In this document: one piece after another, positions 3,206 to 25,539 of the stretch
Position numbering within the stretch: the stretch's first letter is position 1
Layout: every line of letters begins with the position of its first letter
NCBI GenBank assembly: GCA_030606215.1
Contig: JAUWGW010000004.1
Span: 13,047-77,046, forward strand
Length of the DNA stretch: 64,000 bases
Direction: 5' to 3'
DNA from: a bacterium
GTDB lineage: Bacteria; NPL-UPA2; JAUVJM01
The notes under the pieces: model-generated
Database searches by the model: none
Seen by the model: only the letters and a program-made list of their open reading frames with translations
Told to the model about the DNA's origin: nothing
Position numbers and translations under genes: made by a program

Positions 3206-3234
3206 CAAACTTTCACCCAGTCTGGTTAATAGTA

Positions 3235-3345: not shown

Positions 3346-3390
3346 CGTAATAATACTATCACATAAATTTTATCTAAAGCAAGGGAAAAT

Positions 3391-3411
3391 CTGGCTCTAT
3401 CTGGCTCTATC
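3391..3411. repeat. tandem 10-bp direct repeat CTGGCTCTAT x2 in a divergent intergenic region
   Basis: ctggctctat ctggctctat c read directly. Confidence 0.7.
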
Positions 3412-3460
3412 AGAATTTTTTCTTGCCTTTCTGGGAAAGTTAATGATAATATTAGCCATC

Positions 3461-6864: not shown

Positions 6865-6869
6865 AATTT

Positions 6870-7761: not shown

Positions 7762-7766
7762 TTCAA

Positions 7767-8276: not shown

Positions 8277-9675
8277 TACGGAAACTTGCCCTTTCTTTCA
8301 ATAACCAGAACCAATCCCGGAATATTCTCTCCCTTTTGCCCTCAAGCAGAATTCTGTAGAGTTTGTCTTCCTCTTCACTGAATTTTTTCTCATCAATGTT
8401 TTTCCTCTCCCCAAACCTTAGAACACAGAATCCTAATGGGATTCCCACCATATCAAACGGGCTGTCTTCACTCAAACTGAATGCAACACGCCTGAACCCG
8501 GGTACAACTCCTAACTCCTTGATATAGCCATTTCGTGTGAAGAAATCTGTATCCGTTACCTTCATTGAATATTTCCTTGCGATAGCGGTAATATCCTTTT
8601 TCTCCCTCAATGTATGCAGACAGCGTTCCGCTTTAGACCGAGCGAGTTTCGAAGATTCAATCCTTCTCAATTTTTCCTCCACTCTCTCTGCGGCATCCTG
8701 CAAGTTCTCAGGGAGAGAACTTTCTTTCCTATCAACCAGCTTCACTACATAGAAACCCTCTCCCGCTCTTATCAAATCACTGACTTCTCCAACTTCCATA
8801 GAAAAGGCTGTGTCAATACATCCTGGGGGCACAGTTCCGGTACTGCCTTTCTCAAGGTAGTCTGTTTCTTCAGCCTTCAGCTCATCCCAACTTCTTTCCC
8901 CTTCCTCAAGTAGAGATAGAAGTTCCTCCCCTTCTTCCTCAGCTTTCTCCAACGCACCCTCCACTTTCACATCTCCAGGTTTAAAGAAAACATATTCTAA
9001 TTTCACCTTCTCGGGCAGTCTGAACTCCTCACGATGTGATTCAAAATAATCCCTGATCTGTTTCTCAGTTATGCTTACCTCCTTCTCAAAATCACAGGAT
9101 TTAAAAAGAACATATTTCACTTTTACCTCTTCATTCGCGAATCTATAGTACTGTCTCAATTCCTGTTGTGTGAGCTTTACGCAGTTAGTAATACTACGCC
9201 TTAGTTTGGATATAGAAACTTCCGTCCTCATCCCATCCTCGAAATATTCCGGCCCAACCCCGAAATGTTCTCGCAATACAGCGCGATAGATTTCATTATC
9301 AAACTTGCCATCTTTTTGAAATGCAGGGACTGAACTCACTACGGAAACAAGTTCACTATCGCTCGCTCTTATACCTTTAAGCTCTGCGTATTTTAGCAGG
9401 ATAATGTTTTCCCACGCCTCCTTTTCCAGATTGAGGAATTTCGCAACCTCATCAAACTGCCTGCCATAGCGCATCACAGCCAGGCTTGTCACCCAGTATA
9501 AAGACCTGCGGTATTCATTAAATGAAATTTTTCTGCCATATACCTCTCCAACGGATGCTGGTGTTCGAGTCCCACGAATACGCCTGGAGCCATAGAATAT
9601 TATGAAACTCGGGATTATAACTATTATAGTAGCCCAGAGTATCCCCTTCATTTGTTTTCTAAGTATTCTCAGCAT
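8239..9675 (-). CDS. PpiD/SurA-N-domain periplasmic chaperone
   Basis: N-terminal MLRILRK plus TM helix, [10 protein letters not shown] SurA-N motif, rotamase-like AF..GEVS..GFYVVK segments. Confidence 0.85.
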
Positions 9676-9700
9676 ATCTATTTATCCCTCACAGAATGCG

Positions 9701-9728
9701 ATTATATCACATAGAGGAAACAAGTCAA
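9701..9728 (-). promoter_or_regulatory. sigma70-type promoter of the ppiD-like gene
   Basis: TTGACT-16 nt-(TG)TATAAT on the minus strand. Confidence 0.6.
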
Positions 9729-9771
9729 TACAGGAAGAATGAGATGAATTAAGATAGGGGGTAGAAAGAGG

Positions 9772-10809
9772 CTACTTGGTTTTCTCTTCAAGGGTGCGGA
9801 GTTTTCGCTCCAGTTCCCGAACAGTTTTTATAAGTTGCGGCACTCTCCGGAAATTTGCTTTCAGCCGTTTCTCTTCCTCATGAGGTTTTGCGGGGAAACC
9901 TGAAACACATGAATTTGGCGGGACACTCTTCGTAACTCCTGCTCTTGCGGCAACCGTAGCATTATCACCGACAGTTAAGTGCCCGGCAATTCCTGCTTGC
10001 CCTGCGACGGTTACTCCCTTCCCGAGAACTGCGGTACCGGAAATTCCAACCTGAGCAACAATAATGGAATTCTCACCTATAACTACATTATGAGCAATCT
10101 GGACGAGATTATCTATCTTCGTTCCTTTCCCGATGAGAGTTTTCCCAATGGTTGCTCTGTCTATTGTTACGTTCGCCCCGATTTCCACGTCATCTTCTAT
10201 AATCACGGTCCCGATTTGTGGAACCTTGTGGTGAACCCCTTTCACGGGAGCAAATCCAAACCCATCGCTGCCTATTACAGTTCCGCTGTGTATAATACAT
10301 CTTTTACCTATGGTTATCTTCTCCCTGATTGTTACGCGGGGGTAGACAAGTGTCTCATTTCCAATCCTGGATTTTCTGCCGACACATACCTGAGGGGAAA
10401 TTATGACATCATCACCAATCTCAACTTGATCTTCCAGAACAACATATGCCTGGACTGATACTCGCTTACCAAACTTTACTCCCCTACCAATAACAACCGT
10501 TGGATGAACTCCAACTGGAGGACCTGGTTCTCCATTACCGTTTGCCCAGAGTTCCATCACCTTTGTAAAAGCTAAATACGGGTCATCAGCCCGCACAAGT
10601 GCTCTGCGGCCATTCTGCACATCCCTGGAGACAATAACAGCCGACGCATTGGTTAAATTCATCAGCGATGCGTATTTGGAATTGGCTACGAAGGTTAGCT
10701 CGCCCTCCTTAGCTTCCTTTATCCCGGCAACTCCGCTGATGACTATATCCTCATCCCCAACTATCTCGCCATCAACAAGCGAAGCTATTTCTTTCAATGA
10801 AACTAACAT
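9772..10809 (-). CDS. lpxD: UDP-3-O-(3-hydroxyacyl)glucosamine N-acyltransferase
   Basis: Hexapeptide repeats, [28 protein letters not shown]. Confidence 0.97.
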
Positions 10810-10937: not shown

Positions 10938-10953
10938 AGCAATTTCCGTGCCA
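10938..10953 (-). promoter_or_regulatory. sigma54 (-24/-12) promoter
   Basis: Minus strand reads TGGCACGGAAATTGCT, matching consensus TGGCAC-N5-TTGCW, directly downstream of an NtrC-family activator gene. Confidence 0.85.
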
Positions 10954-11063: not shown

Positions 11064-11083
11064 ATGTGGTATTTTTACTACAT
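11064..11083. promoter_or_regulatory. candidate upstream activator (bEBP enhancer) site
   Basis: Near-palindrome ATGTGGTA-TTTT-TACTACAT (TGT-N12-ACA type), about 110 bp upstream of the -24 element. Confidence 0.5.
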
Positions 11084-12448
11084 GCCTGATTTTGGTTCTA
11101 TGTCTAACTTCTTCAACTTCTCATAAAAATTTTTTCTATCCATACCTGAAAGCTTAGCGGCTTCTGTTATATTCCCACCAGTAGCTCTGAGTATCCCTGT
11201 AAAAAATTCTCTCTCAAACGATTCAAGAACTTCTTTTTTCGCATCCTGATACGAATCTATCTTAATATTATCCCACTTCCTGAGTGAAAGGTCAAGAGGA
11301 AGATCTTTATTCTGGAGGATTTTTCCTCTCGCGAGGACAACAGCCCTCTCTATAACATTTTCCAGTTCCCTGACATTACCAGGCCAGTCATAACTGGATA
11401 GCAGCTTCATTGCAGACGGTGAAATCTCTTTTATCTCTTTCCTGAGCTCGCGACTGTATAGACTCAGGAAATACTTCGCAAGAAGGGGGATATCTTCCGG
11501 TCTCTCCCTTAAAGGCGCTAACTCAATCGGAACTACATTTAAACGATAATACAGGTCTTCACGAAAAGTCCCTTCCCCTATTGCCTTCTTTAAATCCATA
11601 TTCGTTGCCGCAATAATCCGCACATCAACCCGAATAGTTCTTGTCCCGCCAACCCTCTCAAACTCCTTTGTCTCAATCACCCTCAGCAAACTACTCTGAA
11701 GAGCCTGACTCATAGCACCAACCTCATCCAGAAAAAGGCTCCCCCCATCAGCCAGTTCAAATCTCCCCCTATGGTCCGTATGAGCACCTGTGAAAGCTCC
11801 CTTAACATGTCCGAATAATTCTGATTCAAGAAGTGTTTCTGAAAGAGCCGCACAATTGACAACAATAAATGGCCTCTCAGCTCTTTTCCCGCCGAAATGT
11901 ATAGCTCGGGCAACAAGTTCTTTCCCTGTGCCACTCTCACCACATATAAGAACCGTGCTTTTTATATCAGCTACTTTTCCGATAAGTTCAGAGACTTCCT
12001 GTATCTGCGGGCTTGCGCTGATTATATTGAATTTAGTTTTTAGCTCCTCCTGTTGAAATTCTTTCTCTTTGACGAGGCGCTCTACATTTAGAGCTCTTGA
12101 CACTATAAGTTTCATTTCCTCTACATCAAAAGGCTTGAGAATATAATCGTATGCGCCCTGCTTCATAGCTTCCACTGCTGTCGCAACAGTCCCGTAGGCA
12201 GTCATTATAATGACAGGCAGTTTCTCATCAAGTTCTCTGATTCTCCTGAGCAGTTCCATTCCGTCCATCACGGGCATTTTCATGTCCGCAATAACAAGAT
12301 GAAATGCAGCTTCGGAAATCTTTTTTATAGCTTCTTCCCCATTTTTTGCTTCTGCCACAGAATACCCTTCCTCCTCAAGAGCTATCTGCAAGACCCGGCG
12401 CATCTTCAGTTCATCATCAACCACAAGAATATTCACCGCTCCGCTCAC
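11078..12448 (-). CDS. sigma54-dependent NtrC-family response regulator
   Basis: Receiver (VVDDE, DMKMP), GESGTGKE, GAFTGA, FREDLYYRL, WPGNVRELEN, Fis-type HTH. Confidence 0.96.
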   Translation of the reverse strand: MSGAVNILVVDDELKMRRVLQIALEEEGYSVAEAKNGEEAIKKISEAAFHLVIADMKMPVMDGMELLRRIRELDEKLPVIIMTAYGTVATAVEAMKQGAYDYILKPFDVEEMKLIVSRALNVERLVKEKEFQQEELKTKFNIISASPQIQEVSELIGKVADIKSTVLICGESGTGKELVARAIHFGGKRAERPFIVVNCAALSETLLESELFGHVKGAFTGAHTDHRGRFELADGGSLFLDEVGAMSQALQSSLLRVIETKEFERVGGTRTIRVDVRIIAATNMDLKKAIGEGTFREDLYYRLNVVPIELAPLRERPEDIPLLAKYFLSLYSRELRKEIKEISPSAMKLLSSYDWPGNVRELENVIERAVVLARGKILQNKDLPLDLSLRKWDNIKIDSYQDAKKEVLESFEREFFTGILRATGGNITEAAKLSGMDRKNFYEKLKKLDIEPKSGM

Positions 12449-12467
12449 AACTTTCTTTCCTCTGTCC

Positions 12468-14081
12468 CTATTTTTTTAGCCTTACTGTGAAAACACTTCC
12501 CTCATTAATCCTGCTTTTAACGGTAATTATCCCGTTGTGAGTTTCAATAATTTTATGGACAATCGAAAGTCCTAACCCCGACCCTTCATCCCTTGTAGAA
12601 AAAAACGGGTTGAAAATCTTCCCGAGTATTTCTCCTGGAATACCAATACCTGTATCAGCAAAACTTACCTCAACATAATTCCGATGAGAACCTATCTTAA
12701 CTGCAAGCTTCCCTCCATCCGGCATTGATTCGACAGCATTTATTATCAGATTTAAAAATGCCTGCGAAAGCTGTTCCGAATCAACTTTTGCCGGAGGCAT
12801 GTGAGCTTCAAAATCTTTTTCAATTTTGATATGCGCACCCGATAACCTTGGTTCTGCAAGATGAAGACTCCTCTCCACAATATCCTCTATTCTTCCTTCT
12901 TCCAGATTCAATTTTCTCGGTCTTGCAAAATCCAGGAAATTACTGACAACTCTGTCTAATCTATCAACCTCTTCCATTATGAAACTCGTCAGTTCCTTCG
13001 CTTTCTCATCCCCTCCGGCATTTTTCTTTAGAACCTGAGCTGAGCTTTTGATAATTCCAAGCGGATTTCTTATTTCATGAGCCACACCAGCAGATAGTTC
13101 CCCGAGCGCGGCGAGCCTATCCTTCCTCCGCAATTCTTCTTCAAGCTGTCTCAACTCTCTCAGCTTGCCTGTCATATGGTTGAATGCATTGCTTAATTCT
13201 GCAAGTTCCTCACTTGACCTGATATTCATTTCCTGATCCAAATCTCCTTCCGCTACTGCGTGCACACCCCTTGCAAATAGTCTGATAGGGTTGGATATAT
13301 GTTTTGCCATTGCATAACCAAGACCCCCTGCCATAATAATGCAAAGTCCGAGCAAAACCGGGAAAAAATACCACGTGGTCGTAGTTTCCGAAAACCCGTA
13401 GCGTTTTGGAATACCGAAGAAAATCATACCGGCAATCCTGCCTTCTCCGGTTCTGAGAGGCTGATAATACGCCTCATATTTCACTCCCTGAAACAAAGCG
13501 TTCTTATCATAATAAGCTTCCCCCCGACGGAAAGCTTCCTCCATCAACTCTACCTGTGTGCCGGGAGTCCGGCGTGATTCACCTTTCCTATAAAGAACAT
13601 TAACTTCAACATCAGTAAGAAGGGACATATCCTGCGCAAAACTTTTCCCGAGCTGATAACCGATTATTAAATCGCCGAGATAGTTCCCATCATAAGATAC
13701 GGAGGTAACTGCACCCGCAATTAGAGCTTCCGGCTTCTCAAGCTGGATGATATCCTTCCCATATGAATTCTTCTTCCCCCCATCTACCACCCACAGGATA
13801 AGAGGGTGCCCTGTCTGAATTACCCGCGGTGTCTCTCCACTGCGCAGGGAAGCTATAAAACCTGGATTATCAATCAAGAATTTCGCAATCTGTTCAGCAC
13901 GGTTTTCATAATCCTGGACTATTTTCATTGTCTTCTCAGACGCTTTCCTGATATCACTCTCCTTTTGCTTCTCAAGCCTTTTTGCATTCATACTGACTAC
14001 GATGACTGTTGATAGAAGCATCGGGATAAGCCCTATGAACAAAAAAGCCGCTATGAGTTTATTCTGAAGTTTCGCTAACAT
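12468..14081 (-). CDS. HAMP-domain sensor histidine kinase (NtrY/PilS-like)
   Basis: Two TM helices, periplasmic domain, HAMP, AHEIRNPL H-box, NA/DTG/GSGLGL boxes. Confidence 0.94.
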   Translation of the reverse strand: MLAKLQNKLIAAFLFIGLIPMLLSTVIVVSMNAKRLEKQKESDIRKASEKTMKIVQDYENRAEQIAKFLIDNPGFIASLRSGETPRVIQTGHPLILWVVDGGKKNSYGKDIIQLEKPEALIAGAVTSVSYDGNYLGDLIIGYQLGKSFAQDMSLLTDVEVNVLYRKGESRRTPGTQVELMEEAFRRGEAYYDKNALFQGVKYEAYYQPLRTGEGRIAGMIFFGIPKRYGFSETTTTWYFFPVLLGLCIIMAGGLGYAMAKHISNPIRLFARGVHAVAEGDLDQEMNIRSSEELAELSNAFNHMTGKLRELRQLEEELRRKDRLAALGELSAGVAHEIRNPLGIIKSSAQVLKKNAGGDEKAKELTSFIMEEVDRLDRVVSNFLDFARPRKLNLEEGRIEDIVERSLHLAEPRLSGAHIKIEKDFEAHMPPAKVDSEQLSQAFLNLIINAVESMPDGGKLAVKIGSHRNYVEVSFADTGIGIPGEILGKIFNPFFSTRDEGSGLGLSIVHKIIETHNGIITVKSRINEGSVFTVRLKK

Positions 14082-15342
14082 ACCCGAGTCTTTCCCTGAG
14101 ACGGTTCTGCAAGTTTTGAGGGAACTCTCCCTCAAGAACTCGCTTCACAACGGAATCCCTCATTACCTTGAACGGGGGTAATCTATAATTCTCGTTATCA
14201 CCATATTTCTCCATATACTTTTTCCATATAAGCTTCGCAAGATTCTCAAGCCCGGCTGATTTCTCATCATCACCAATTGCAAGCGACATAAGTGCCTGTC
14301 TCAATATCCCATGAATCAGCGCTGACATTTCAAGCGGAGAAGCTCCCTTGATATTTTCTCTTATACGGGCGAATATATAGTCTTCAAAGGGCAGACGATA
14401 GTGAACAGGGTTTAATTTCCGCAGTCTCCTGTAGCACTCAAGAGATTTCCTGTTCTGACCATAGGTATAAAGAAGCATCACAGATGATTGAAGAAAATTT
14501 TCATGTGCTGATGCTAACCCAGTTTCTCTTCCGTACTTCTCCATCATCTCACGGTAGAGGCGGTCTGCAGTATCTAAGAACCTGAAATCCGGTTCTGTTA
14601 GAATAAACCCCGCAGGTGTTCTGACAAACCTCCCTGTCTCACACAAGCTAATGACTGCGTGAAGGATGAGTCTGTCGTAGTTGAGAGCTTGTTCTTCCCC
14701 GGAAACCTCAACTCCCTTTGTAAGCCAGTATATAGCATGGGACTGTGCCAGCCTCCAGTCAAGCGGCCCATAAATTTCCGTCAGTTCCAACATACGCTCC
14801 GGTTCAAGTTTCAACTCCTCCATCTCTTCAGAAAGTTTCATCTTGTAATACCAGTGAAACCTATCATGAAACTTGCCAATCTTATGAAGATATATCCACG
14901 CAAGTTCGCGGTAAAGCAGAGTGCTTCTCGGATTATATTTTAACCCCTCATCTCTCAACAATTCAATCCCGCGTTTTATCCAGGTCCAGCGTTCCTCCGC
15001 AGACGGCAATTCCACTGATATATTATAAGCCATGTTCCATGCATTATGCCCCCAGACCATCTCCATTCTCGGCTCCATCTTCCCTATCCAATCATAAATC
15101 TGGACCAGTTCAAAGAATTTGCCTGAGCGTTGTAACTCCATCGCCCTGATCCAGAGATAGTCCACAATAATGCCGCGAAATCCTCCAAGAGCCGTTGTCG
15201 CAAGGACAAGTTCAGGTGGAGCGCTTTCAAAAGGCGATGACAAAAGTTGGAACTCATCTCTTCCCTCATTCAGCTTCCCCAAACACAGGTGTGTAAGGGA
15301 GAAAAACACTACTATGAGAAGAAGAATAACTACACGCTTCAT
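14059..15342 (-). CDS. exported helical/TPR-like protein (PVC 'IRE'-type; PilG/XapA-like N-terminus)
   Basis: N-terminal hydrophobic segment, then LGGFRGIIVDYLWIRA and AWNMAYNISV motifs; helical composition. Confidence 0.6.
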   Translation of the reverse strand: MKRVVILLLIVVFFSLTHLCLGKLNEGRDEFQLLSSPFESAPPELVLATTALGGFRGIIVDYLWIRAMELQRSGKFFELVQIYDWIGKMEPRMEMVWGHNAWNMAYNISVELPSAEERWTWIKRGIELLRDEGLKYNPRSTLLYRELAWIYLHKIGKFHDRFHWYYKMKLSEEMEELKLEPERMLELTEIYGPLDWRLAQSHAIYWLTKGVEVSGEEQALNYDRLILHAVISLCETGRFVRTPAGFILTEPDFRFLDTADRLYREMMEKYGRETGLASAHENFLQSSVMLLYTYGQNRKSLECYRRLRKLNPVHYRLPFEDYIFARIRENIKGASPLEMSALIHGILRQALMSLAIGDDEKSAGLENLAKLIWKKYMEKYGDNENYRLPPFKVMRDSVVKRVLEGEFPQNLQNRLRERLGYVSETSE

Positions 15343-15348
15343 ATTGCC

Positions 15349-16605
15349 TCACAGGTATCCCATATTTGCCAGCTCACGACGGTTGAATATAAGATGCGCA
15401 ATAACTCCAATCATCCCACAGCGTAATAAAACTATTGCCGCAAATCCCTTCAAAACCACAGCCCATCTAATTAAAATGCCGCTTACTACATATGGGACAG
15501 GGTCGTATGCTCTCAAATCCGGGAAAACCTTCAATCCGGCTGCCAAAAATTTTCTTACAAATGCAGTGGTCAATCCAGTGTGACCGGAGTCCAATCCCAC
15601 CTCAGGAAATAAAAAACTCTGTTTTAGAAGCGCATCAATAAACGGAAAACTGAGACTCATCACAAGTACAAATATAGAAAGCAATGTCGCTACAGGGAAT
15701 GTCAGAAATGTAGATGAAGCCAATCCAACAGCCGAAATAAAAGTAACTCTCAAAAGTATCAGAAGTATCCCGCGAAACAAGTTCCCGCCAAATCCACCCG
15801 CGCGGTAAAGAACAATTACATCGTCATGAGGGAATATTGCTGTAACACCGCTCGGGGAAATGTTCATAAACTTCACATTGAGTCTTCCCTCAGGAGAAAC
15901 AACTGACGCAGGAACCTGAAATTCATGAAATGTCCCCCCAGGGAAGGCAGTTGTCTGCCGGTAAAAACCCCTCTCCATATTCCCAACTGTCCAGACGCCG
16001 GCTATTTCAACATTTGGAGCACCTGAGGAGAAATTTCTGAACTTTATATGAATGATGTCCTCAGACGGTTTTATCCCGTGAAATTCCCATTCCCGCTCAT
16101 GGTGCGGCAGGACAACAAATGTAGACTTTTTACCCTCAATAGCTTTCGGTTTTGTCTCTACCCTCGCAGTCACAACCTGCGTTTTGATCTTAAATTGCTC
16201 CTGCTCCCCCCCTTCAACGGGTCTTGCAATATATTTCACAAGTCCATAAATTGCTCCTCCCGCGCATACAAGCAGTACCATATTAAGCGCCACCACACCA
16301 ACCCATTTCCCTGCGAGAACTTCCCATCTCCTCACAGGTTTTGTGTCAATTGTGAATATAGTCTTATCGCGGATATCAGCACAGAACGTTGAAGTTGACA
16401 GGAATATCGTCAGAAGAGATAGAACAATGTTCAGAACGCTGAGCGAATAGGCAAGTGTTATCTGAACCTTCCCTTTCTGTGTATCACTTTCCAGGGTAAA
16501 TGGGATTGAGACAACTACTGCTATGAGGAAAAACACAAATGCTATTACAAGTTTCATCCTCATCCCGTGACGAATTGTGTTAATTGCAATAGCCAGTAAT
16601 TTCAT
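15349..16605 (-). CDS. ABC-2 type permease with large extracytoplasmic insert
   Basis: AIAINT, IFTIDTKPVRRWEVLAGKW, F.RRE C-terminus; ~150 aa soluble insert between TM blocks. Confidence 0.85.
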   Translation of the reverse strand: MKLLAIAINTIRHGMRMKLVIAFVFFLIAVVVSIPFTLESDTQKGKVQITLAYSLSVLNIVLSLLTIFLSTSTFCADIRDKTIFTIDTKPVRRWEVLAGKWVGVVALNMVLLVCAGGAIYGLVKYIARPVEGGEQEQFKIKTQVVTARVETKPKAIEGKKSTFVVLPHHEREWEFHGIKPSEDIIHIKFRNFSSGAPNVEIAGVWTVGNMERGFYRQTTAFPGGTFHEFQVPASVVSPEGRLNVKFMNISPSGVTAIFPHDDVIVLYRAGGFGGNLFRGILLILLRVTFISAVGLASSTFLTFPVATLLSIFVLVMSLSFPFIDALLKQSFLFPEVGLDSGHTGLTTAFVRKFLAAGLKVFPDLRAYDPVPYVVSGILIRWAVVLKGFAAIVLLRCGMIGVIAHLIFNRRELANMGYL

Positions 16606-17543
16606 TCGTTCTCTGTTAGTCTTTTGATGACAGACTTCCTGGGTGGTGGTGACTCAGCTTCTTCAGTCCGGGTTATCTGCTCTTTCCCTCCTGGAGACTC
16701 AAAACTGTGGACTGTTTCAAGGAAAAACTCTTCCAGAGATTCCATCGGCTTTGTTAGTTCTGCCTCAGCCCCTTTCTCCTCTTCATTTATAATGTTTAGA
16801 ACCTTTTCGACTGTTTCTTTGGAAATGTTAGATGCTGAAATCTGAGTAACATCCTTCATTGTGAGGAGTTCATCTACTTTCCCCTCTGCAATTAACCTGC
16901 CTTCGTAGAGGATTGCGATTCTATCACACACGTCTTCAACATCAGCAAGGAGGTGACTTGAGAGAAAAACAGTTTTTCCTCTCTTTTTCAGCTTCAGAAT
17001 GAGGTCTTTCACCTCCCGCCTCCCTACCGGGTCAAGTCCACTTGTTGCCTCATCAAGAATCAGGAGGTCAGGGTCATTAATCAGAGCCTGCGCAAAGCCG
17101 ATTCTCCTCGCCATACCTTTTGAATACTCGCCCACGGGGCGGGTTCTTGATGGAGCTAACCCTAACATCTTCAGGAGTTTCTCCCCGCGCTTCTTTCGTT
17201 CACCTGAGGGCAGTTCAAAAAGCCGCCCATAAAAATCCAGGGTCTCGCCGGCATTGAGATAGTTGTAGAAATAGGACTCTTCAGGGAGGAAACCGACGCG
17301 TGTTTTTGACAGGCTATCCCTTGGAGATAATCCGAAAATCCTTACAATCCCCGAAGTGGGGAAAAGAAGTCCGAGCATGAGTTTTATCGCTGTGGTTTTA
17401 CCAGAACCATTTGGACCAAGCAAACCAAATACTTCGCCGCCATGTACGGTAAGGTTTAAATTATCAACGGCTCGGACCTTGTCTCTGTGCCAGAAATCCT
17501 TGAATACTTTTGTCAGCCCTATAGTCTCAATAACAGGTTTCAT
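16602..17543 (-). CDS. ABC transporter ATP-binding protein (PilH/XapD-like)
   Basis: GPNGSGKTT, YSKGM signature, LILDEATSGLDP, SSH. Confidence 0.93.
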   Translation of the reverse strand: MKPVIETIGLTKVFKDFWHRDKVRAVDNLNLTVHGGEVFGLLGPNGSGKTTAIKLMLGLLFPTSGIVRIFGLSPRDSLSKTRVGFLPEESYFYNYLNAGETLDFYGRLFELPSGERKKRGEKLLKMLGLAPSRTRPVGEYSKGMARRIGFAQALINDPDLLILDEATSGLDPVGRREVKDLILKLKKRGKTVFLSSHLLADVEDVCDRIAILYEGRLIAEGKVDELLTMKDVTQISASNISKETVEKVLNIINEEEKGAEAELTKPMESLEEFFLETVHSFESPGGKEQITRTEEAESPPPRKSVIKRLTENE

Positions 17544-17559
17544 ATTCAGAAATTCAACT

Positions 17560-19455
17560 TCACTGGGTGTATCCAACAAGGCGTGCGCTGTTGAACACAA
17601 CTACTAATGAAATAACCATGTAGAAAATAGCCGCTATAATCGGGGTAAGAATCCCCGCGCCAGAAAGTGTCAATCCACCAATTATGCATAAGACTGCAAA
17701 GGCAAGATTCTGATAGACAATTCGCATCGCCCTCCGTGAGAGTTTTATCAGAAAAGGCAGCCGCCCCAAATCAGAGCTCATAAGAGCAATTGTCGCACTG
17801 TTTATCGCTACATCACTCCCTGCAGCGCCCATTGCCACCCCGATATCTCCAGCCGCCAGCGCAGGCGCATCATTCACACCATCACCCACAACAGCTACTC
17901 TGTGCTCCCTTTTCTTCATCTCACCGACTAATTGAAGTTTTCTCTCGGGCAGACATTCAGCTTCAAACTGAGTGCACCCAAGCTCATCTGAAACCCTCCT
18001 CGCTACCGGTTCCTTATCACCGGTAAACATCATCACCTCTCTGAGCCCGAGTTTTTTGAGTTCATCAACTGCATCCCTCGCCCCAGACCTCGTCCTGTCC
18101 TCAAGCCCGACACAACCTATACACTTCCCACCCTTCGCTACGAAAAGAGCGCTCAGCCCTTCCATTCCGCTGCTCTGAATGAGATTCGTGTCAACACCCT
18201 GCTCGGCTAACCATCGCTCCCTGCCAATGTGGACTGCCTCCCCTTTGAGAACTGCCGTCACGCCTCTCCCTGCTACCTCCTTGAAATCCCTGCATTCATC
18301 AAATTCAAGTTCCGCTTCTTTCGCTACCTGAACAATCGCCTTAGCCATCGGGTGATTACTATGCCTTTCAACCGAACCGGCTATCCTGAGAAGTTCCTCA
18401 GCAGAAACATTTCCCGCAGGGAGAAGGCGTTTCACAGCAAGCTCCCCGGTTGTAAGTGTTCCTGTCTTATCAAATGCAATTGCAGTCAGCCCCCCTGCCA
18501 GTTCAATATCCCCGACATTTTTGATAAGGACACCCATCCTCGCCGCACACGCAAGAGCGGCCACCATTGCTGTTGGCATTGCGAGTATTACCGCAGTTGG
18601 GCAGCTGACAACAAGAGCCGTGATTGCTCTTGTTGTCTCGCGTGTGAAGAAAAATATTGTCCCTGCAACCATTACTACAACAGGCGTATACCAGCCCATG
18701 TAGCGGTCCATCATACGCATTATTGGGAGTCTCGTCTCTTGAGCCTGAATTATCAGCGTTCTGACTCTTCCAAGAATCGTTTCCGTTCCTGCCCTTATCA
18801 CCCTGACCCTCAGAAGAGAAGTGAGATTAGTTGTGCCTGCAAATATATCATCCCCTTCAGTCTTATCAGCCGGCATAGACTCTCCTGTAATTGTCGCTTC
18901 ATTTATTGCACTTGCTCCCTCAAGAATCACACCATCTGCAGGCACGTTTTCACCAGGACGTATTAATATGATTTGTCCCGGAGAAAGTTTCTCCGCAGGA
19001 ATTTCCACTTCAGACCCATCTTCTCTCAAAAATCTTGCCTTTCTCGGACTTAAAACAACTAATTTCTCAAGTGCGGCGTGAGCTCCAATAGCCGCCCTCC
19101 TTTCCACAAGTTCTGCTATCAGCATAAAGAAAGCCACAATACCTGCTGTCTGATAATCTTGAAGTGCAAAACAGGCAATGAGAGCCAGCGCTACAAGTTC
19201 AGACATCCTCTGTTCACCGCGAATAAGGCCGCCTGCCGCATTCCAAATAATTGGAACACTCAAAATAACCGCTCCAATCATAGCGCTTATAGCGCTGATT
19301 TGAGCTTCACCGAAAAAAGCATCCGCAAGGAACGAGTTAATTACAAGAGCCGCCCCAAGAAAAGTTCCTGTCAGGCGGAGCATTACCCTCCGCTCTCTTG
19401 CCTCAACAGGTTCTTTATTTTTCCGGTCCAATGATATACCTGATTTCTCCTTCAT
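17560..19455 (-). CDS. P1B-type (heavy-metal-type) P-type ATPase without N-terminal metal-binding domain
   Basis: TGES, SCP membrane motif, DKTGT, SNHP, GDGVNDAPAL. Confidence 0.93.
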   Translation of the reverse strand: MKEKSGISLDRKNKEPVEARERRVMLRLTGTFLGAALVINSFLADAFFGEAQISAISAMIGAVILSVPIIWNAAGGLIRGEQRMSELVALALIACFALQDYQTAGIVAFFMLIAELVERRAAIGAHAALEKLVVLSPRKARFLREDGSEVEIPAEKLSPGQIILIRPGENVPADGVILEGASAINEATITGESMPADKTEGDDIFAGTTNLTSLLRVRVIRAGTETILGRVRTLIIQAQETRLPIMRMMDRYMGWYTPVVVMVAGTIFFFTRETTRAITALVVSCPTAVILAMPTAMVAALACAARMGVLIKNVGDIELAGGLTAIAFDKTGTLTTGELAVKRLLPAGNVSAEELLRIAGSVERHSNHPMAKAIVQVAKEAELEFDECRDFKEVAGRGVTAVLKGEAVHIGRERWLAEQGVDTNLIQSSGMEGLSALFVAKGGKCIGCVGLEDRTRSGARDAVDELKKLGLREVMMFTGDKEPVARRVSDELGCTQFEAECLPERKLQLVGEMKKREHRVAVVGDGVNDAPALAAGDIGVAMGAAGSDVAINSATIALMSSDLGRLPFLIKLSRRAMRIVYQNLAFAVLCIIGGLTLSGAGILTPIIAAIFYMVISLVVVFNSARLVGYTQ

Positions 19456-20449
19456 CGCCCTTCCCGATAATAAATCTTTCCTCAGTTCCAGCTATAACCT
19501 CTCCAATCACTTCCTGGTAGAGCTGATTCAGAAAAACATTGAGTCTTTCCGGCTCCCCGGGATATTCTCGCAAAAGGTCCTGCAGATACTGCGCATCCGC
19601 CTTCGCAGATTCAACTACCCTTGTTTTGTATGTTGCTGCCTCTGATATCACTCTTGCGGCTTCGCCTTTGACTTCATTGACTATACGGCTTGCGTAGGCA
19701 CGCGCAGAATTTATATTTTTACTACTCTCCTGCTCAGCACGGATCACAGAATTGAATGCGTCCCTCACCTGCTGTGGAGGCATCATTTCTCTCAGGTCAA
19801 CACCTTCAATGAAAAGACCGATATTCCTGCGTTCAAGCTCCCCGAGGATACCAACCTGCACCTTTCTCCTCAACTCATCAACGTTTGTTCTGAGCGCCTC
19901 ATCCACTCCAAAATTAGAAGTTTCACGAATAACAGAATTCTTCGCAATTATCGCAAGCACTTTTTCCGGCTCCTCCGCAGAAGTAATATAAGCTACGGGG
20001 TCAGCTATTGTGTATCTAATTGCCCATCCTGAATGGACTATATTCCCATCCCCTGTGAGACAGTATTCATCTAACCCCGGATATAACTTGTCAGCCACTT
20101 TCCTTTGCCCTCCCCGCGTCTTCTCCAGCTCTCCGGGCATAAAGGATACCTCTATACTGTGAACACGCGCCACAGGTATGATTATGTGCTCATCAATGGG
20201 GAAAGGCCATGCCCAGTGCAGACCAGGTTCAAGAACAGTCCCCGCCATCGCTCCAAACCTGAGTACAATCCCGGCTTCATGCTGCTCTACAACAAATATC
20301 CCGGATGTCAAATAAAGAATTAAAACTCCTGCCATAATCACTTTCAGAATGTTAAAGCTGAGTCTCAGAGCATCTGAGAGAGAACTCCTCGCAACCTCAA
20401 CCGTCCCCCCGGGCGCTTGATTTTCCCCACCGTTCATTTCATCACTCAT
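19415..20449 (-). CDS. HflK-like SPFH protein
   Basis: TM helix, EPGLHWAWPFPI, LTGDGNIV, PPQQVRDAF, coiled coil. Confidence 0.9.
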   Translation of the reverse strand: MSDEMNGGENQAPGGTVEVARSSLSDALRLSFNILKVIMAGVLILYLTSGIFVVEQHEAGIVLRFGAMAGTVLEPGLHWAWPFPIDEHIIIPVARVHSIEVSFMPGELEKTRGGQRKVADKLYPGLDEYCLTGDGNIVHSGWAIRYTIADPVAYITSAEEPEKVLAIIAKNSVIRETSNFGVDEALRTNVDELRRKVQVGILGELERRNIGLFIEGVDLREMMPPQQVRDAFNSVIRAEQESSKNINSARAYASRIVNEVKGEAARVISEAATYKTRVVESAKADAQYLQDLLREYPGEPERLNVFLNQLYQEVIGEVIAGTEERFIIGKGDEGEIRYIIGPEK

Positions 20450-21335
20450 TTAATTCAGGCATTCCTTCCAGCAAATCATATGGAGGCATACCGGTATCCA
20501 GGACAATTGTTGTTTTCTCTTTAAGCGTATCTCTTAAAGCATCAAGTTTCCTGAGGAATATTGCAAGTTCTTCGTTTTCTGAAAAAACACCATAATACTT
20601 TGCCGCAAGCGCATCCCCTTCACCCATTATTCTCTTTGCTTCCGCCTCCGCCATTGCAAGAATTCTGTCTCTCTCACTTTCTGCCTCAGCTCTGATCTTA
20701 TTCGCTTCACCCTCACCTTCAGCGCGGTAGCGTTCTGCAATCCGTTCTCTCTCCTTCCTCATCCGCTCAAAAACCTTCGCAGTTGTATCCTCAGGAAGCG
20801 CCATCTGTTTTATCCTGACAAACTCAACACCAATACCATACCGTTCCTCAGTCTCGGTTGAGACAAGTTTTAGCATCTCCTCTTCAATCTCATCAAACTG
20901 TAAGCTCCCGGAATCTGTAGATATAAAATGGTTCAGGGGATGTCTTCCTATAACTGCATTTTTATAATTCCTCAGAACGCTCTGCAAATTTTTCTCAGCT
21001 TCAAGTTCTGTCCCAACACTCTCTAAGAATTTAAGAGGGTTCTGAATCCTCCAGGCAAGAGATGCAGTAATAATGAGGTTTTTGCCATCCCTCGTATATG
21101 TTTCCTCAAATTTGCTGTCAAGAACCTTCAGGCGAGAATCAAATCTGTAGAGAGATTGTATTGGCCATGGCCATTTCCAGTAAAGCCCCGGTTCACTCAA
21201 AACAAGAACAGGTCTGCCAAATGTTGTAAGGACAACCTGCTCATTGAGCCTTACCTGGAAAGCAATAAGGTAAAGCGCGAGAATTACGAGAATTATTCCA
21301 GCAGTTATAATTGTAAAAATGTTCTTTTTCATCAT
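20442..21335 (-). CDS. HflC-like SPFH protein
   Basis: TFGRP, PGLYWKWPWP, FDSR, TRDGKN, RMRKERERIAERYRAEG. Confidence 0.92.
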   Translation of the reverse strand: MMKKNIFTIITAGIILVILALYLIAFQVRLNEQVVLTTFGRPVLVLSEPGLYWKWPWPIQSLYRFDSRLKVLDSKFEETYTRDGKNLIITASLAWRIQNPLKFLESVGTELEAEKNLQSVLRNYKNAVIGRHPLNHFISTDSGSLQFDEIEEEMLKLVSTETEERYGIGVEFVRIKQMALPEDTTAKVFERMRKERERIAERYRAEGEGEANKIRAEAESERDRILAMAEAEAKRIMGEGDALAAKYYGVFSENEELAIFLRKLDALRDTLKEKTTIVLDTGMPPYDLLEGMPELNE

Positions 21336-23201
21336 TTACTCCTCCATTTCTGTCAAATCAATATCCAGAAGTTCAGGTCTGAGTTTCTCTTTCATATCTA
21401 CAATTGTAACCTGATGAGCTTTAGCTTTCTCAGGCACAACATATTTCCTGAGGTTCTTCAGCTTTTCTTCAAGCGCATCCAGAAACTTTCTCATTCGATA
21501 AACCTTCTTGCAAGATTTGTCTGCGGAATATTGTTTCATGAACTGCTCTGCTCTCGCACCTGCCACCGTTTGCCGGCGGAACTTGTACGCAGAAGCTTCC
21601 GTTTTCAGCACCTTTTCCTGATACTCAGCTAATGGGATGATTTTGTTTCTGTAAGATTCCGCCGCAAGTACACTTGTATGTTTCTCCTCAATTGCCCCCA
21701 CCACTTCCTCAAAGGCACCTGCAACCTCTACAGGAGGATGAACATTTTCAAAACCAACATATAATATTTCCAGCCCAAGTTCCGCGTGCTCACACGCATC
21801 TGCTATACGACGAGCCAGATGTTTTGAAGCCTGTAATCTACCCGGGCCCATTATGTCAAATAAGTCAACGCTCACCATGAAGCGCACAAGTTCCCTTGAC
21901 GCGATACTCTCAAGAACTTTCACAGGGTCCTGTTTTTTATAGAGAAAAGTCCGTAAATCATTTATGCGATATTGAATATCAACAGAGGTGTTCAAAAAAT
22001 TAACAGGGACAGCCTCTAAATCTTCCCTTTCCCCTGAAACTGTCTCACTGCTGGCAACAATGAGATTATTCACGCCGCAGCCATGTTCCACAGTCCACAA
22101 AATTACATCCCTGTGCGCTCCATGCGCTTCATGTCTTCCACGCTCTCCATGCACACCTATTGTCACCGTCTCAATTCGTCTCGTCGGATATTTGAAAACA
22201 CTCTCAACAGGCCACGGTAATTTGAAATGAAGTCCCGGCTCAAGTATATCGTCAGCGGGACTCCCGAATCTTTCCACTATTGCAGTCTCTTCCGGATTGA
22301 CAACAACTATACATGTGAGACCGTAAAATGCAATTATCTGGAAAAGGATGATTGGCGCTATCGCCCTTTCAAGGAATCTGTAGAACCACGTCTGGGAAAT
22401 TTCAAGTCCGAACTGGTAGTCCAGAGCTTCAGCTACTGTTTTGAGCGCTCCGGAAGGTCTCGCCAGCATCCTGAGCATCCTGCTGGAATACGGCGGATGA
22501 TATTCAAGAGACGGGACCCTTGGCCTGTAAATATGGAGGATAAAGTTCAAAACCAGCTCAATTCCCAGTATTCCTGCCACCAGCGGAATTGCGAAAGAAA
22601 TAAATTTTTCAACCTTCGGCAATCCTAAATAAATCGTTACCAATCCACAGGAAACTGCTATGGAACATATTGCGCAGAGTATGGATATTGCTCCACCTGC
22701 CTCAATTAACCTCCACCGTGCAGCAGTCGCAAGCCCACTTGCATATCTCCCAAAAATAAACAGAACAAACGCAATTCCGGCAACTCCAGCTGCCGCGGCA
22801 GCAGTTCTTCCAATGCCGGCTTCTAACAAGGGGAAAATACCTGCAAATTTCAGAAGAGGCACAGCAGCCATGTAGAATGCTATCAGGAGAGAAACGCCGG
22901 GTAAGAACCACCGCTCCATTTGTCTGAGGCGCACCTTTGCACTGAAAGAGTCATAACTCTCATCTTCAAAAAGATGTGAACTTTTTGGCGCTTTCTCCTT
23001 CAGAGCTTTGACATTATCCTCTTCAACAGTTACAAGAAACTTCTGTCTCAGGTGGATGAATACAACTCCCCAGATAAGTCCGGACCCAAAGATAAGAAGA
23101 GACAGAAGAACCGGAGATTGGGTCCCGCTCCAGATACCGAGAAAAGCTGATAGACATGAGAATATTATATGTAATACAAAACCAAAAAAAGCTACCTTCA
23201 T
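21336..23201 (-). CDS. HflK-like SPFH protein with multi-TM N-terminal extension
   Basis: About 290 aa polytopic N-terminus, then ERFG, EPGLHFKLPWP, HPPVEVAGAFEEV. Confidence 0.88.
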   Translation of the reverse strand: MKVAFFGFVLHIIFSCLSAFLGIWSGTQSPVLLSLLIFGSGLIWGVVFIHLRQKFLVTVEEDNVKALKEKAPKSSHLFEDESYDSFSAKVRLRQMERWFLPGVSLLIAFYMAAVPLLKFAGIFPLLEAGIGRTAAAAAGVAGIAFVLFIFGRYASGLATAARWRLIEAGGAISILCAICSIAVSCGLVTIYLGLPKVEKFISFAIPLVAGILGIELVLNFILHIYRPRVPSLEYHPPYSSRMLRMLARPSGALKTVAEALDYQFGLEISQTWFYRFLERAIAPIILFQIIAFYGLTCIVVVNPEETAIVERFGSPADDILEPGLHFKLPWPVESVFKYPTRRIETVTIGVHGERGRHEAHGAHRDVILWTVEHGCGVNNLIVASSETVSGEREDLEAVPVNFLNTSVDIQYRINDLRTFLYKKQDPVKVLESIASRELVRFMVSVDLFDIMGPGRLQASKHLARRIADACEHAELGLEILYVGFENVHPPVEVAGAFEEVVGAIEEKHTSVLAAESYRNKIIPLAEYQEKVLKTEASAYKFRRQTVAGARAEQFMKQYSADKSCKKVYRMRKFLDALEEKLKNLRKYVVPEKAKAHQVTIVDMKEKLRPELLDIDLTEMEE

Positions 23202-24154
23202 ACGCTTTCCCTTCCCTCAAAAAGCACTATGGATATTAAAAGGATAGCTGCTGAATAGAAAAATCCGTATCCGCTGGCTCCCAAAACATACTTAGCGGGA
23301 ATCGTCTCACCAGCCACTATCATATCTGCCATCCAGAATACCTGCATATTAGGTATCAGCACATATGCGGCTCTCGCAAAGATGTTATCAAACCTTCCAA
23401 ATATATGGTCTGAAAGAAGCCCGAGCAGAAAGATAGATGCGCAGAACCCAACAGTCAGAACGACGCTGAATCTGGTTGATATAGCAACCGCCACCGCCGC
23501 AATACTCAAAAGAGCAACAAGTATCAGATAGCTTGCTGCCACTACCTGAATGTCAACATCGGCACAGAACCTCTGAAAATTCAAATCCTTATCAATGAAG
23601 CCGAGCAGCACAAACATAAAACTGAAACTCAGAATAGAATATCCAAAACAGGAACTGCAGAATGGACGGTCATGAAAATAGTTGGCAAGAGCTGCGAGAA
23701 GAATACCAACGGTAAAAGCAAAAATTTCTCCATAAATAACAGGACGATGAAGTTTTATATATGCCGCCTCCGGAACCCCTATTCTGACTGTCAGTATAAG
23801 GATTAAAGTTAGAAGATATGCGGATGCAATTAGAGCGAGTGCAATACCGGTGAATTTGCCGAGAATGAACTGCGCTTTTGATACGGGTTTTGTCAGAACC
23901 GTCAGGATGGTTTTGTTTTCCATCTCATTTGAAATGACATTTCCAGCAGAAAATGCCGCCTGAAGAAGACCTGTAAGCAATATTGTTGCAAGCCCCATAT
24001 CCTTGAGCAGTTTCACATCGTCCATCAATGTGAACATTGCAAAAGACGGACTCAGCGCAATCATAAAGGCGCCAATCCCAAGAATAATTACAAAGACCGG
24101 CTGCCGCACCGTCTCAGTAAGCGCATTCTTTGCTATCGCAGCTATCTTACCCAT
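23198..24154 (-). CDS. ABC-2 type permease (PilI-like)
   Basis: AIAKNALTETVRQP, EMENKTILTVLTKPVSK..FILGKF, PN, FEGRE. Confidence 0.88.
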   Translation of the reverse strand: MGKIAAIAKNALTETVRQPVFVIILGIGAFMIALSPSFAMFTLMDDVKLLKDMGLATILLTGLLQAAFSAGNVISNEMENKTILTVLTKPVSKAQFILGKFTGIALALIASAYLLTLILILTVRIGVPEAAYIKLHRPVIYGEIFAFTVGILLAALANYFHDRPFCSSCFGYSILSFSFMFVLLGFIDKDLNFQRFCADVDIQVVAASYLILVALLSIAAVAVAISTRFSVVLTVGFCASIFLLGLLSDHIFGRFDNIFARAAYVLIPNMQVFWMADMIVAGETIPAKYVLGASGYGFFYSAAILLISIVLFEGRESV

Positions 24155-24186
24155 TTACAACACTCACTTTTCAATCTACAAGAGTA

Positions 24187-24215
24187 ATTATACCCACTCT
24201 AAACCAACAGTGCAA
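24187..24215 (-). promoter_or_regulatory. sigma70-type promoter of the SPFH/P-type/ABC operon
   Basis: TTGCAC-17 nt-TATAAT on the minus strand, about 30 nt before the ATG at 24154. Confidence 0.65.
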
Positions 24216-24444
24216 GGATAAATCCGTTGTGAATTGGGAAATTATTGCCGACTTCGTACGGAAGAAATGAGGTCTTGCTCAGAAGGACGAAGGTTGGGAT
24301 TTTTTTCTTTACATCGCTCCCGCAATGTGACAAAATTAAAAATGAGCAGTTAATGAAACTATTTAGATAGATTTTCGCAGATAACAAAAGTTGTGTTATG
24401 ATAACAATGAACACAGGGCAAGACAACCAGAGGAGGCAAATGAA

Positions 24445-25539
24445 ATGAGGACGGAAATTTTGTCGAAAGTACTACAAATCTTTCTGATAGTGCTTATATT
24501 GGGGATTTTCGTTGTTGCCGGCAGAGCAGAGGACTATAAGATGCCTTCTTCATCTATGGAAGCGGCTCAAGCATTACCGAGGGGTGGTAACAGTTTTGAA
24601 ACCGCGGTTAAGATAAAACCTGGAAGTTATCAAAGGGGCGTCTTAGAAGAGAACGAATACTTTTGTGTTGCTGGTATAAAACCGGGCCAGGAAATCAATA
24701 TTAAGTATACCTTTGGTGCTGGGACTGGTAAGCATGGATGGGGTAACCTGAGTTTATACGATGAAGATAGAACAATATTATTTGGCCACTTTGATATGGT
24801 TGGCAAGGGAGGATCGAAATCAATTACAGTTTCTTGGCTGCCAAATACAGATAAAGATTCTTACAAATATTATATCCATACAGGATATAGCGATTACGAT
24901 GTGGGTCCAGTCTCATTTGATATCTCGTTGACAAATTATTATGATGCCGGAAGCCAGACCGATGCCGGAGGTACGTTTGAGAAAGCAATGAGTATTACCG
25001 CTGGAAACTACAAAGCTTATCTTTCAGGAGAAGAAGCGGGCACAGATACTAAAGATTTCTACAAGATGGCCGTTAAAAAAGGAGAAATGTTAACTGTTAA
25101 AGTTGTTCCACCGAGCGAGGCAAGCCCGAGTTTGAAAATATACAATAGCGACAGAGTGATAATTAAACAAGTATTCGCTCCAAATCCAGGAGCAATTGTT
25201 CGAGCTTCTTTGACTGCAAAGAAAAGCGAAAAAATTTTCGTTGCCGTTCTTTGTGATGGATGTGGCAGCAAAAACGTGGCTGAGTATTCATTAGGTATTA
25301 CAATTCAGCCACCGCCAGAAGAGGAAGTAGTGCTACCGGAAGAAGAGATAACGCTACCCGAAGAAGGAGTACCATCGGGAGAAGCACCGGAGCCGATAGC
25401 GCCAAAGGAAGCAAAAGAAGTAGCAAAAGCTGTTGGGAAAGGAATCGCTGTGAGAATAATTCTTTGGATTGTATTCTCGCTTGTTCTCCTTATAATAATC
25501 GGAGTAGTTGTTTATTCCCTTTTGAAAAAGAAAACATAA
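24445..25539 (+). CDS. secreted, C-terminally membrane-anchored surface protein with two PPC-like repeats
   Basis: RBS AGGAGG at 24431; signal peptide; repeats GGNSFETAVKIKPGSY / GGTFEKAMSITAGNY; Pro/Glu linker; TM helix plus KKKT. Confidence 0.7.
   Translation: MRTEILSKVLQIFLIVLILGIFVVAGRAEDYKMPSSSMEAAQALPRGGNSFETAVKIKPGSYQRGVLEENEYFCVAGIKPGQEINIKYTFGAGTGKHGWGNLSLYDEDRTILFGHFDMVGKGGSKSITVSWLPNTDKDSYKYYIHTGYSDYDVGPVSFDISLTNYYDAGSQTDAGGTFEKAMSITAGNYKAYLSGEEAGTDTKDFYKMAVKKGEMLTVKVVPPSEASPSLKIYNSDRVIIKQVFAPNPGAIVRASLTAKKSEKIFVAVLCDGCGSKNVAEYSLGITIQPPPEEEVVLPEEEITLPEEGVPSGEAPEPIAPKEAKEVAKAVGKGIAVRIILWIVFSLVLLIIIGVVVYSLLKKKT

Follow-up and report, generated by a model that had tools for sequence, protein, structure and literature searches.

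A conserved eight-gene membrane module of three HflK/HflC-like SPFH proteins, a P1B-type ATPase and an ABC-2 exporter: a candidate platform for divalent metal export

A 64,000-nucleotide stretch of DNA from a bacterium of the NPL-UPA2 lineage (contig JAUWGW010000004.1 of assembly GCA_030606215.1, positions 13,047 to 77,046; hereafter the window) carries ten open reading frames (ORFs) in a row on the minus strand, referred to here as g1 to g10. The first eight of these genes, encoding two ATP-binding cassette (ABC) permeases, three SPFH proteins, a P1B-type ATPase, an ABC ATPase and a helical protein resembling a tetratricopeptide repeat (TPR) solenoid, constitute one conserved membrane system, and the co-conserved core comprises these eight genes only. 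The reading preferred here, to which a probability of roughly one half is attached, is that g1-g8 encode an SPFH-scaffolded platform that exports a divalent transition metal. Successive genes overlap by 4-77 nucleotides or are separated by gaps of 0-19 nucleotides, so that the ten same-strand genes with overlapping or near-abutting junctions of the preliminary description of this DNA are borne out by the ORF coordinates. Pfam and NCBIfam likewise agree with the gene order and identities that it gave, namely an ABC permease, three SPFH proteins, a P1B ATPase, an ABC ATPase, a second permease, a histidine kinase and an NtrC-type activator.

The case for a single system is made by its relatives. 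A profile of the long SPFH protein g2 was run against a species-level genome collection, yielding 590 confirmed relatives, and the best 80 loci, representing the top of the similarity ranking, were examined with 10-kb flanks; the counts for each gene use only those loci long enough to hold that gene. The 80 loci belong to Planctomycetota (Pirellulales, Phycisphaerae and Brocadiia) and Verrucomicrobiota, with one labelled Methylomirabilota and one labelled Aegiribacteria. The recurrent order is permease, long SPFH protein, HflC-like protein, HflK-like protein, P1B ATPase, ABC ATPase, permease and TPR-like protein. The g1 permease gene adjoins g2 in 74 of 75 loci, 41 of them divergent (the planctomycete type) and 33 co-directional, and g3 follows g2 in all 78 loci that could be scored. 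Similarly, g4 is in place in 75/76 loci and g5 in 67/71, the four exceptions being two loci where the ATPase gene is relocated to the other side, beside g1, and two where no g5 was found (L020 and L059). The distal genes are in place somewhat less regularly (g6 in 51/63 loci, g7 in 50/61 and g8 in 47/59), and in four of five genomes where g5 is not followed by g6-g8, the g6-g7-g8 genes make up an operon of their own elsewhere. Thus, the co-conservation of the SPFH trio, the P1B ATPase, the ABC ATPase, both permeases and the helical protein extends far beyond this genome. Additional conserved neighbours in the 80 loci are housekeeping genes only (GNAT, FabF-like, FabA-like, ACP, SerRS and UvrD), common to related planctomycete metagenome-assembled genomes (MAGs), and no metal regulator was found among the conserved neighbours. 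In the window's own phylum, full-length g2 is present in 3 of 13 genomes, and the family of its N-terminal domain extends to 1176 representative clusters at E <= 0.001 in a library of 1.84 billion proteins.

Conserved gene order could also reflect co-regulation in a single metal or envelope stress regulon, with the SPFH trio, the ATPase and the ABC exporter acting independently of each other and forming no physical complex. Such an arrangement would accommodate the ATPase genes that are relocated or not found in the loci mentioned above, the g6-g8 block that can lie 100 kb from g1-g5, and the stand-alone occurrence of the ABC unit in relatives. Against this, the gene order is kept across at least two phyla, and g1, a paralogue of the second ABC permease, stays beside g2 even when g6-g8 leave. 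Moreover, relatives of the trio include intact fusions of a transporter to an SPFH domain (see below), which show the scaffold family to be physically tied to a transporter. Co-regulation without a complex is considered unlikely on this balance.

The three SPFH proteins are encoded by g2 (621 amino acids, positions 21336..23201), g3 (297 amino acids, 20442..21335) and g4 (344 amino acids, 19415..20449); these and all positions given below for g1-g10 are on the minus strand. Each has a Band_7 domain (PF01145) and N-terminal hydrophobic segments. In the case of g2, the Band_7 domain occupies residues 300-515 and is preceded by about 290 polytopic residues that carry no annotation. The HflC-like g3 scores 147.1 bits on the NCBIfam model TIGR01932 (cut-off 134.4), the HflK-like g4 scores 169.3 bits on TIGR01933 (cut-off 159.4), and g2 reaches 138 bits on TIGR01933, below that cut-off. 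All three scores are far below those of the canonical HflK/HflC pair of the same genome, which lies on contig C28 and scores 289.8 (TIGR01933) and 289.4 (TIGR01932) bits. The C28 locus (genome G000; L018, 3007-6968) encodes FloA (499 bits) and two small ORFs, followed by the canonical HflK and HflC.

The separation of the trio from the canonical pair is also seen in a quick maximum-likelihood tree of 66 rows, for which the Shimodaira-Hasegawa-like approximate likelihood ratio test (SH-aLRT) is the only measure of support. In this tree, g2, g3 and g4 each form a single clade (support 99, 92 and 100, respectively), apart from canonical HflK (98) and canonical HflC (99), and the trio does not group with the canonical HflK and HflC of the same genomes, which was the outcome of the phylogenetic check that the preliminary description had proposed. 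The g4 clade joins the HflK-like member of a set of distant trios whose first gene is a fusion of a cation diffusion facilitator (CDF) transporter to an SPFH domain (support 91). The SPFH domains of g2 and of these CDF-SPFH fusions branch outside the clade made up of g4, the trio HflK-like proteins and canonical HflK. By sequence relationship, then, g2 (K'), g3 (C) and g4 (K) each represent a separate lineage, and none of them belongs with the housekeeping HflKC pair.

Comparison with the HflK/HflC-FtsH cage of Escherichia coli (PDB 7vhq, 7wi3 and 9cz2) is instructive in both directions. The two systems share an SPFH domain followed by a long coiled-coil region, and they share alternating K and C paralogues that are encoded side by side, g3 and g4 being above the HflC and HflK cut-offs. 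The differences are that three paralogues are present here versus two in E. coli, that these cluster apart from a canonical pair encoded in the same genome, that one subunit has a six-helix domain derived from a transporter, and that the neighbouring genes conserved with them encode a P1B ATPase and an ABC exporter. The likenesses leave room for a rival explanation, that the trio is a specialised FtsH-modulating variant of HflKC whose cage recruits FtsH for quality checking or turnover of the neighbouring polytopic transporters, and is not a transport scaffold. For instance, g3 and g4 pass what are equivalog cut-offs of NCBIfam, the best structural matches of the SPFH part of g2 are E. coli HflK/C chains in FtsH complexes (E 6.3e-12), and FtsH is present in the genome. 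The genome is, however, already supplied with a canonical HflKC pair of about 290 bits, the trio falls in separate clades, and an FtsH-modulating role leaves unexplained both the transporter domain on one subunit and the existence of intact CDF-SPFH fusions. This explanation is accordingly judged improbable, at about the same level as co-regulation without a complex.

The absence of ftsH from the locus does not contribute to this judgement. The preliminary description had called the operon 'FtsH-less', and there is indeed no ftsH in the window, the only full FtsH match of the genome being on another contig. The label is uninformative about a link to FtsH, because ftsH is found nearby in none of the 80 loci (0/80) and because the genome encodes FtsH and a canonical HflKC pair elsewhere.

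An indication of a connection to metal transport comes from the N-terminal part of g2. The protein is laid out as a six-helix, CDF-like membrane domain (residues 1-225), a highly conserved segment (225-280) and then, behind an anchor helix (272-297), an HflK-like SPFH domain. In the distant SPFH trios referred to above, found in the same class as the window (L015) and in another phylum (L017), the first gene encodes Pfam Cation_efflux and Band_7 domains in one protein, and is followed by HflC-like and HflK-like genes. The Cation_efflux and Band_7 domain pair occurs in 14 protein clusters, that of the query included, and the N-termini of the fusions score 65-77 bits on Pfam Cation_efflux. By comparison, g2 has no match to Pfam Cation_efflux (PF01545). 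When a profile of 100 g2 N-termini was aligned with a profile of 13 CDF-SPFH N-termini, hhalign returned a probability of 98% (E 2.8e-13, 199 columns), versus less than 1% for control alignments of the same profiles with the unrelated polytopic g1 and g7 alignments.

Structure prediction is consistent with this relationship. An AlphaFold2 (AF2) model of g2 has residues 1-225 as six helices at a predicted local distance difference test score (pLDDT) of about 90, and the best non-SPFH structural match of the model is the zinc transporter family member SLC30A10 (Z 14.9, root-mean-square deviation 3.2, 176 residues aligned), followed by ZnT3 (Z 14.2, 192 residues aligned). Matches to ZnT8, ZnT1, ZnT4 and ZnT7 have Z scores of 8.6-9.1, and those to ferritin-like four-helix bundles reach Z <= 10.6 over 115-135 residues. 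Since helical bundles can reach Z of about 13 by chance, the CDF-fold scores are to be read jointly with the profile result. Taken together, profile and model show the N-terminus of g2 to be a degenerate CDF membrane domain, descended from a CDF metal transporter.

The degeneration is evident at the sites of transport. Both HxxxD motifs, one in helix 2 and one in helix 5, are kept in 13 of 13 intact CDF-SPFH fusions, and both metal sites are lost in the g2 family, with no conserved Asp at either aligned column across 100 sequences. In these sequences, the columns aligned to the CDF aspartates are occupied by G/A/S/T in 96/100 and by N/C/A/S in 75/100, with Asp outside the four commonest residues at both. 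Conservation in g2 is instead highest in the segment that follows helix 6 (residues 225-280), where 14 positions between Y225 and Y274 are invariant. Going by CDF topology, we take this segment to be cytoplasmic and to stand at the place of the CDF dimerisation domain. In the g2 family, the conserved segment appears together with the dedicated P1B ATPase and the ABC-2 exporter. Compared with CDF proteins such as YiiP and the ZnT/SLC30 transporters (PF01545), g2 resembles them in its six N-terminal helices, in profile homology and in its SLC30A10/ZnT3-like predicted fold, and differs in having neither the Pfam match nor the two HxxxD transport motifs, and in that the cytoplasmic dimerisation domain has given way to a conserved linker and a seventh helix, followed by a periplasmic SPFH domain. 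The link between SPFH proteins and metal transport suggested in the preliminary description is thereby made firmer than it had been, as g2 carries a membrane domain derived from a CDF and has intact CDF-SPFH fusions among its relatives.

A third SPFH trio (L016, contig C24 of genome G005, 1-9763), truncated in its first gene by the end of the contig, is situated in a dense metal-handling neighbourhood. Downstream of this trio are two genes for ParA/4Fe-4S NTPases, then one each for a radical SAM protein, a fusion of a CDF with a Nitro_FeMo-Co domain, an ArsP_2 exporter and FeoB.

The gene following the trio, g5 (17560..19455), encodes a 631-residue P1B-type ATPase with E1-E2_ATPase (PF00122) and HAD (PF00702) domains. 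It scores 520.9 bits on the heavy-metal model TIGR01525 (cut-off 346.25) and 435.3 bits on the Cd-family model TIGR01512, above the cut-off, and 385.7 bits on the Cu model TIGR01511, below the cut-off of 397. Motifs were counted in 63 sequences, consisting of the window's g5 and 62 orthologues from the module. The DKTGT, TGES and GDGxND catalytic motifs are invariant (63/63), and most of the ATPases also have the CPC motif (60/63), a histidine in helix 8 (61/63) and a His-rich N-terminal tail (57/63). On the strength of these three features, the substrate in most lineages is probably a divalent metal of the Zn/Cd/Co type. The window's g5 and the copy in genome G001 of the same family (L013, 11128-12993) have CPT for CPC and Tyr for the helix-8 His, and have no His-rich tail. 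Because all three presumptive ligand sets are lost and the catalytic motifs are kept, the substrate of the window's ATPase, or its role in the complex, has probably changed. The ATPases of L019 and L045 have CPS and no His-rich tail, with the helix-8 His kept. In the window's genome, which is 93% complete, g5 is the only P1B ATPase found, and no Pfam CDF (Cation_efflux) match was found anywhere at E <= 0.01, versus matches in 14 of 14 control genomes.

The remaining genes of the module make up an ABC-2 (type V) exporter with a TPR-like accessory protein. The first permease, g1 (318 amino acids, 23198..24154), scores 35.8 bits on ABC2_membrane_2 (PF12679; cut-off 27.2), and the second, g7 (418 amino acids, 15349..16605), is just below the same cut-off at 25.9 bits. 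The two are paralogous, as an hhalign comparison of their orthologue alignments gives 98.7% (E 3.3e-16), and in g7 an insert of about 145 residues, read from the sequence, separates helix 3 from helix 4. Neither g1 nor g7 has a sequence relative in the PDB at E <= 10. The ABC ATPase g6 (ABC_tran, PF00005) has a longest ORF of 332 amino acids (16602..17600) that begins with TTG, and the true start may be Met20. In the case of g8 (427 amino acids, 14059..15342), no Pfam or NCBIfam match was found, and searches of the Atlas and with Foldseek gave only 'hypothetical' or generic TPR matches, the best Foldseek TM scores being <= 0.46 (target-normalised) and <= 0.32 (query-normalised). Its AF2 model (pLDDT 85.8) has an N-terminal hydrophobic helix (residues 2-30) followed by an all-alpha, TPR-like solenoid that belongs to no named family. 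The single N-terminal hydrophobic helix of the model suggests that g8 may be exported, as had been put forward in the preliminary description.

In four small genomes of the window's phylum (L107, L108, L109 and L110), a free-standing unit has the order g6-type ABC ATPase, g7-like permease, short g8-like TPR-like gene and g1-like permease. Because the same four kinds of gene form a free-standing unit in relatives, g1, g6, g7 and g8 belong together. No family name exists for the free-standing ABC unit or for its TPR-like member. Canonical-type HflK/HflC pairs are found near related genes in two further loci, in one of them directly after a g6-g7-g8 trio (L106, 1455-8335, of the verrucomicrobial genome G043) and in the other near a g6 fragment, a g1-like gene and a short g8-like gene (L111, 598-6902, on contig C133 of G001). 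From these two arrangements, ABC-2/TPR units and HflKC-type genes may be linked more generally.

Among solved sequences, the closest to g6 are the nucleotide-binding domains of ABCA4 and ABCA1 (about 230 bits), followed by NosF (159 bits). The permeases g1 and g7 are in the same Pfam ABC-2 family that COG annotation ties to NosY. NosF, the closest solved bacterial relative of g6, is part of NosDFY, which functions in copper delivery to nitrous oxide reductase (PDB 7o0y). NosDFY offers a precedent in which an ABC-2 system works on a metal at the outer face instead of pumping a solute. The resemblance does not extend to the accessory protein, which here is a TPR-like solenoid, with no NosD-like or NosL-like protein present.

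The similarity to ABCA proteins could be taken to mean that the module serves envelope or lipid handling, with an ABCA-like ABC-2 exporter moving a lipid or glycolipid, an SPFH cage organising the membrane patch and the P-type ATPase supplying a cation to a periplasmic step. The nucleotide-binding domain of g6 is closest to those of the lipid-transporting ABCA4, ABCA1, ABCA3 and ABCA7, lipid A, Tol-Pal and glycosyltransferase genes abound in the window, and the window's ATPase has lost its soft-metal ligands. Yet similarity in a nucleotide-binding domain does not report substrate, the flanking envelope genes are not kept beside the module in other genomes, and two features, the descent of g2 from a CDF and the His-rich ATPases, favour metals. 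A lipid-handling role is thus the least probable of the alternatives considered and is regarded as very unlikely.

If the module is a metal-export platform, its parts might work together as follows. The g2, g3 and g4 proteins would build a heteromeric K'/C/K ring or cage of the HflKC type, with the SPFH domains in the periplasm. The fossil CDF domain and the conserved segment of g2 would serve as a tether, holding or regulating the P1B ATPase within the membrane patch that the cage encloses, and g1 would link this tether to the ABC complex in the same patch. The P1B ATPase would export the metal, and the ABC-2 unit (two copies of g6, together with g7, g1 and the TPR-like g8) would perform the next step on the outer side or adjust the membrane around the pump. 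A more specific version, offered tentatively and with distinctly less confidence than metal export by a scaffolded platform, is that the three dedicated HflK/HflC paralogues form a cage with the fossil CDF as docking module, inside which the P1B ATPase and the ABC-2/TPR exporter operate in series, as a two-pump compartment for metal export or metalloprotein loading in Planctomycetota, Verrucomicrobiota and related lineages.

Several observations weigh against metal export by such a platform. In the organism studied here, the loss of CPC, of the helix-8 His and of the His-rich tail from the ATPase weakens the case for metal export. For the module ATPases as a whole, the metal is deduced from motifs only, and they meet neither of two published signatures, that of P1B-1 (Cu+; YN(X)4P and MXXSS) and that of P1B-2 (Zn/Cd/Pb; QN(X)7K and DXG(X)7N) (PMC4932525); their consensus, NQNLxFGILFI...LHxxGSLxVVFNS, lacks YN, MXXSS and Lys, and carries His at the position of the P1B-2 Asp. 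The SPFH domains of g2 and of the CDF-SPFH fusions are not joined in the quick tree, with its SH-aLRT support only, and the ABC unit also occurs with neither an SPFH nor an ATPase partner. In addition, the module is patchy: samples of 151 genomes from each phylum gave matches to the g2 N-terminal profile in 57 of 151 for Verrucomicrobiota and in 27 of 151 for Planctomycetota. The 80 loci are also related, many coming from kindred MAGs, such that the counts drawn from them are not independent.

Membrane scaffolds of the SPFH type with transporters as clients are a known kind of system, and it is the specific architecture described here that does not appear in the literature searched. In that literature, which took in papers available without a subscription, there was no description of the module, of a three-paralogue HflKC set or of CDF-SPFH fusions. 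A 2009 survey of SPFH proteins (PMC2636767) has zero occurrences of 'transporter', 'ATPase' and 'cation'. The nearest known concept is the PacL1-CtpC platform, which has a non-SPFH scaffold. In these metal efflux platforms, or 'effluxosomes', of mycobacteria, the P1B ATPase CtpC is scaffolded by PacL1 (PMC9374683; PMC13043812). CtpC needs PacL1, a small membrane scaffold encoded adjacent to it, for stability and for clustering in the membrane; PacL1, a DUF1490 protein, is likened by the authors of the report to flotillin-like scaffolds and forms foci without the flotillin homologue (PMC9374683). The system described here resembles PacL1-CtpC in having a P1B ATPase gene next to the gene for a candidate membrane scaffold. 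It differs in that the candidate scaffolds are true SPFH proteins, which PacL1 is not, and in that an ABC exporter also belongs to the unit. DUF1490 did not appear in Pfam scans of the ten genes, no search aimed at it having been made.

The last two of the ten genes encode a sensor histidine kinase with Cache-like, HAMP, HisKA and HATPase_c domains (g9; 555 amino acids, 12468..14135) and an NtrC-type sigma-54 activator with Response_reg, Sigma54_activat and HTH_8 domains (g10; 456 amino acids, 11078..12448). The preliminary description had counted this two-component system as part of the unit, and here its proposal was not borne out. The pair was not found after g8 in G001 (L013), the genome of the same family, and in none of the 80 loci is the cluster followed by an orthologue of the kinase or of the NtrC-type activator. 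In these loci, g9 was matched in none, and matches to the g9/g10 queries are limited to two weak hits (23 and 35 bits) on the opposite strand, some 8 kb upstream. The two genes are local additions, and are same-strand neighbours of the module only in this lineage.

A different role for the pair is suggested by a perfect sigma-54 -24/-12 element, TGGCACGGAAATTGC (TGGCAC-N5-TTGC; 10939..10953, minus strand), which is the only zero-mismatch match in the 64-kb window. The element is positioned 125 nucleotides downstream of the g10 stop codon and 130 nucleotides upstream of lpxD (9772-10809), beyond which lies a SurA-like gene (8239-9675). No sigma-54 promoter was found before g1. By its position, the element is probably the target of g9/g10, and it is more likely that the pair drives lpxD and the SurA-like gene rather than the module. 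The two-component system may control genes for outer-membrane biogenesis.

Upstream of g1 is a candidate sigma-70-type promoter (24187..24215, minus strand), with TTGCAC at 24215-24210, a 17-nucleotide spacer and TATAAT at 24192-24187, ending 33 nucleotides before the g1 start codon. The element named in the preliminary description is therefore present in the sequence, although its -35 hexamer agrees with TTGACA at only 3 of 6 positions, which is also why a consensus scan missed it. The region has 23 promoter-like sites, against 20.0 +/- 4.2 in shuffled sequences, and so shows no enrichment of them. The idea that this promoter and the two-component system together define the operon was rejected, as the regulator pair is not conserved with the module.

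Beside g1, and divergent from it, is an ORF of 382 amino acids (24391-25539, plus strand) that has no Pfam or NCBIfam match and is not kept beside the module in G001. Elsewhere in the window, a Tol-Pal-like cluster (48540-52933, minus strand) encodes ExbB/TolQ, a TonB/TolA-like protein, TolB and two OmpA-family proteins. This cluster, together with the genes for a lipid A acyltransferase and LpxD in the window, indicates a diderm envelope.

Few clients of bacterial SPFH cages are known, which leaves open what these cages do besides modulating FtsH. For the module described here, the candidate clients are fixed by a gene order that is conserved across phyla, and in the sister systems the SPFH subunit and an intact metal transporter are joined covalently in one protein. 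Conserved neighbours and covalent fusions therefore make the effect of an SPFH cage on a transporter directly testable in cultivable planctomycetes and verrucomicrobia. The analysis also defines three families that have had no Pfam model or name (the g2 N-terminal domain, the g8 TPR-like protein and the CDF-SPFH fusions), and provides a case of a transporter domain turning into a probable adaptor. If the proposed arrangement is true, it would represent the first SPFH cage with its client written into its own subunit and operon.

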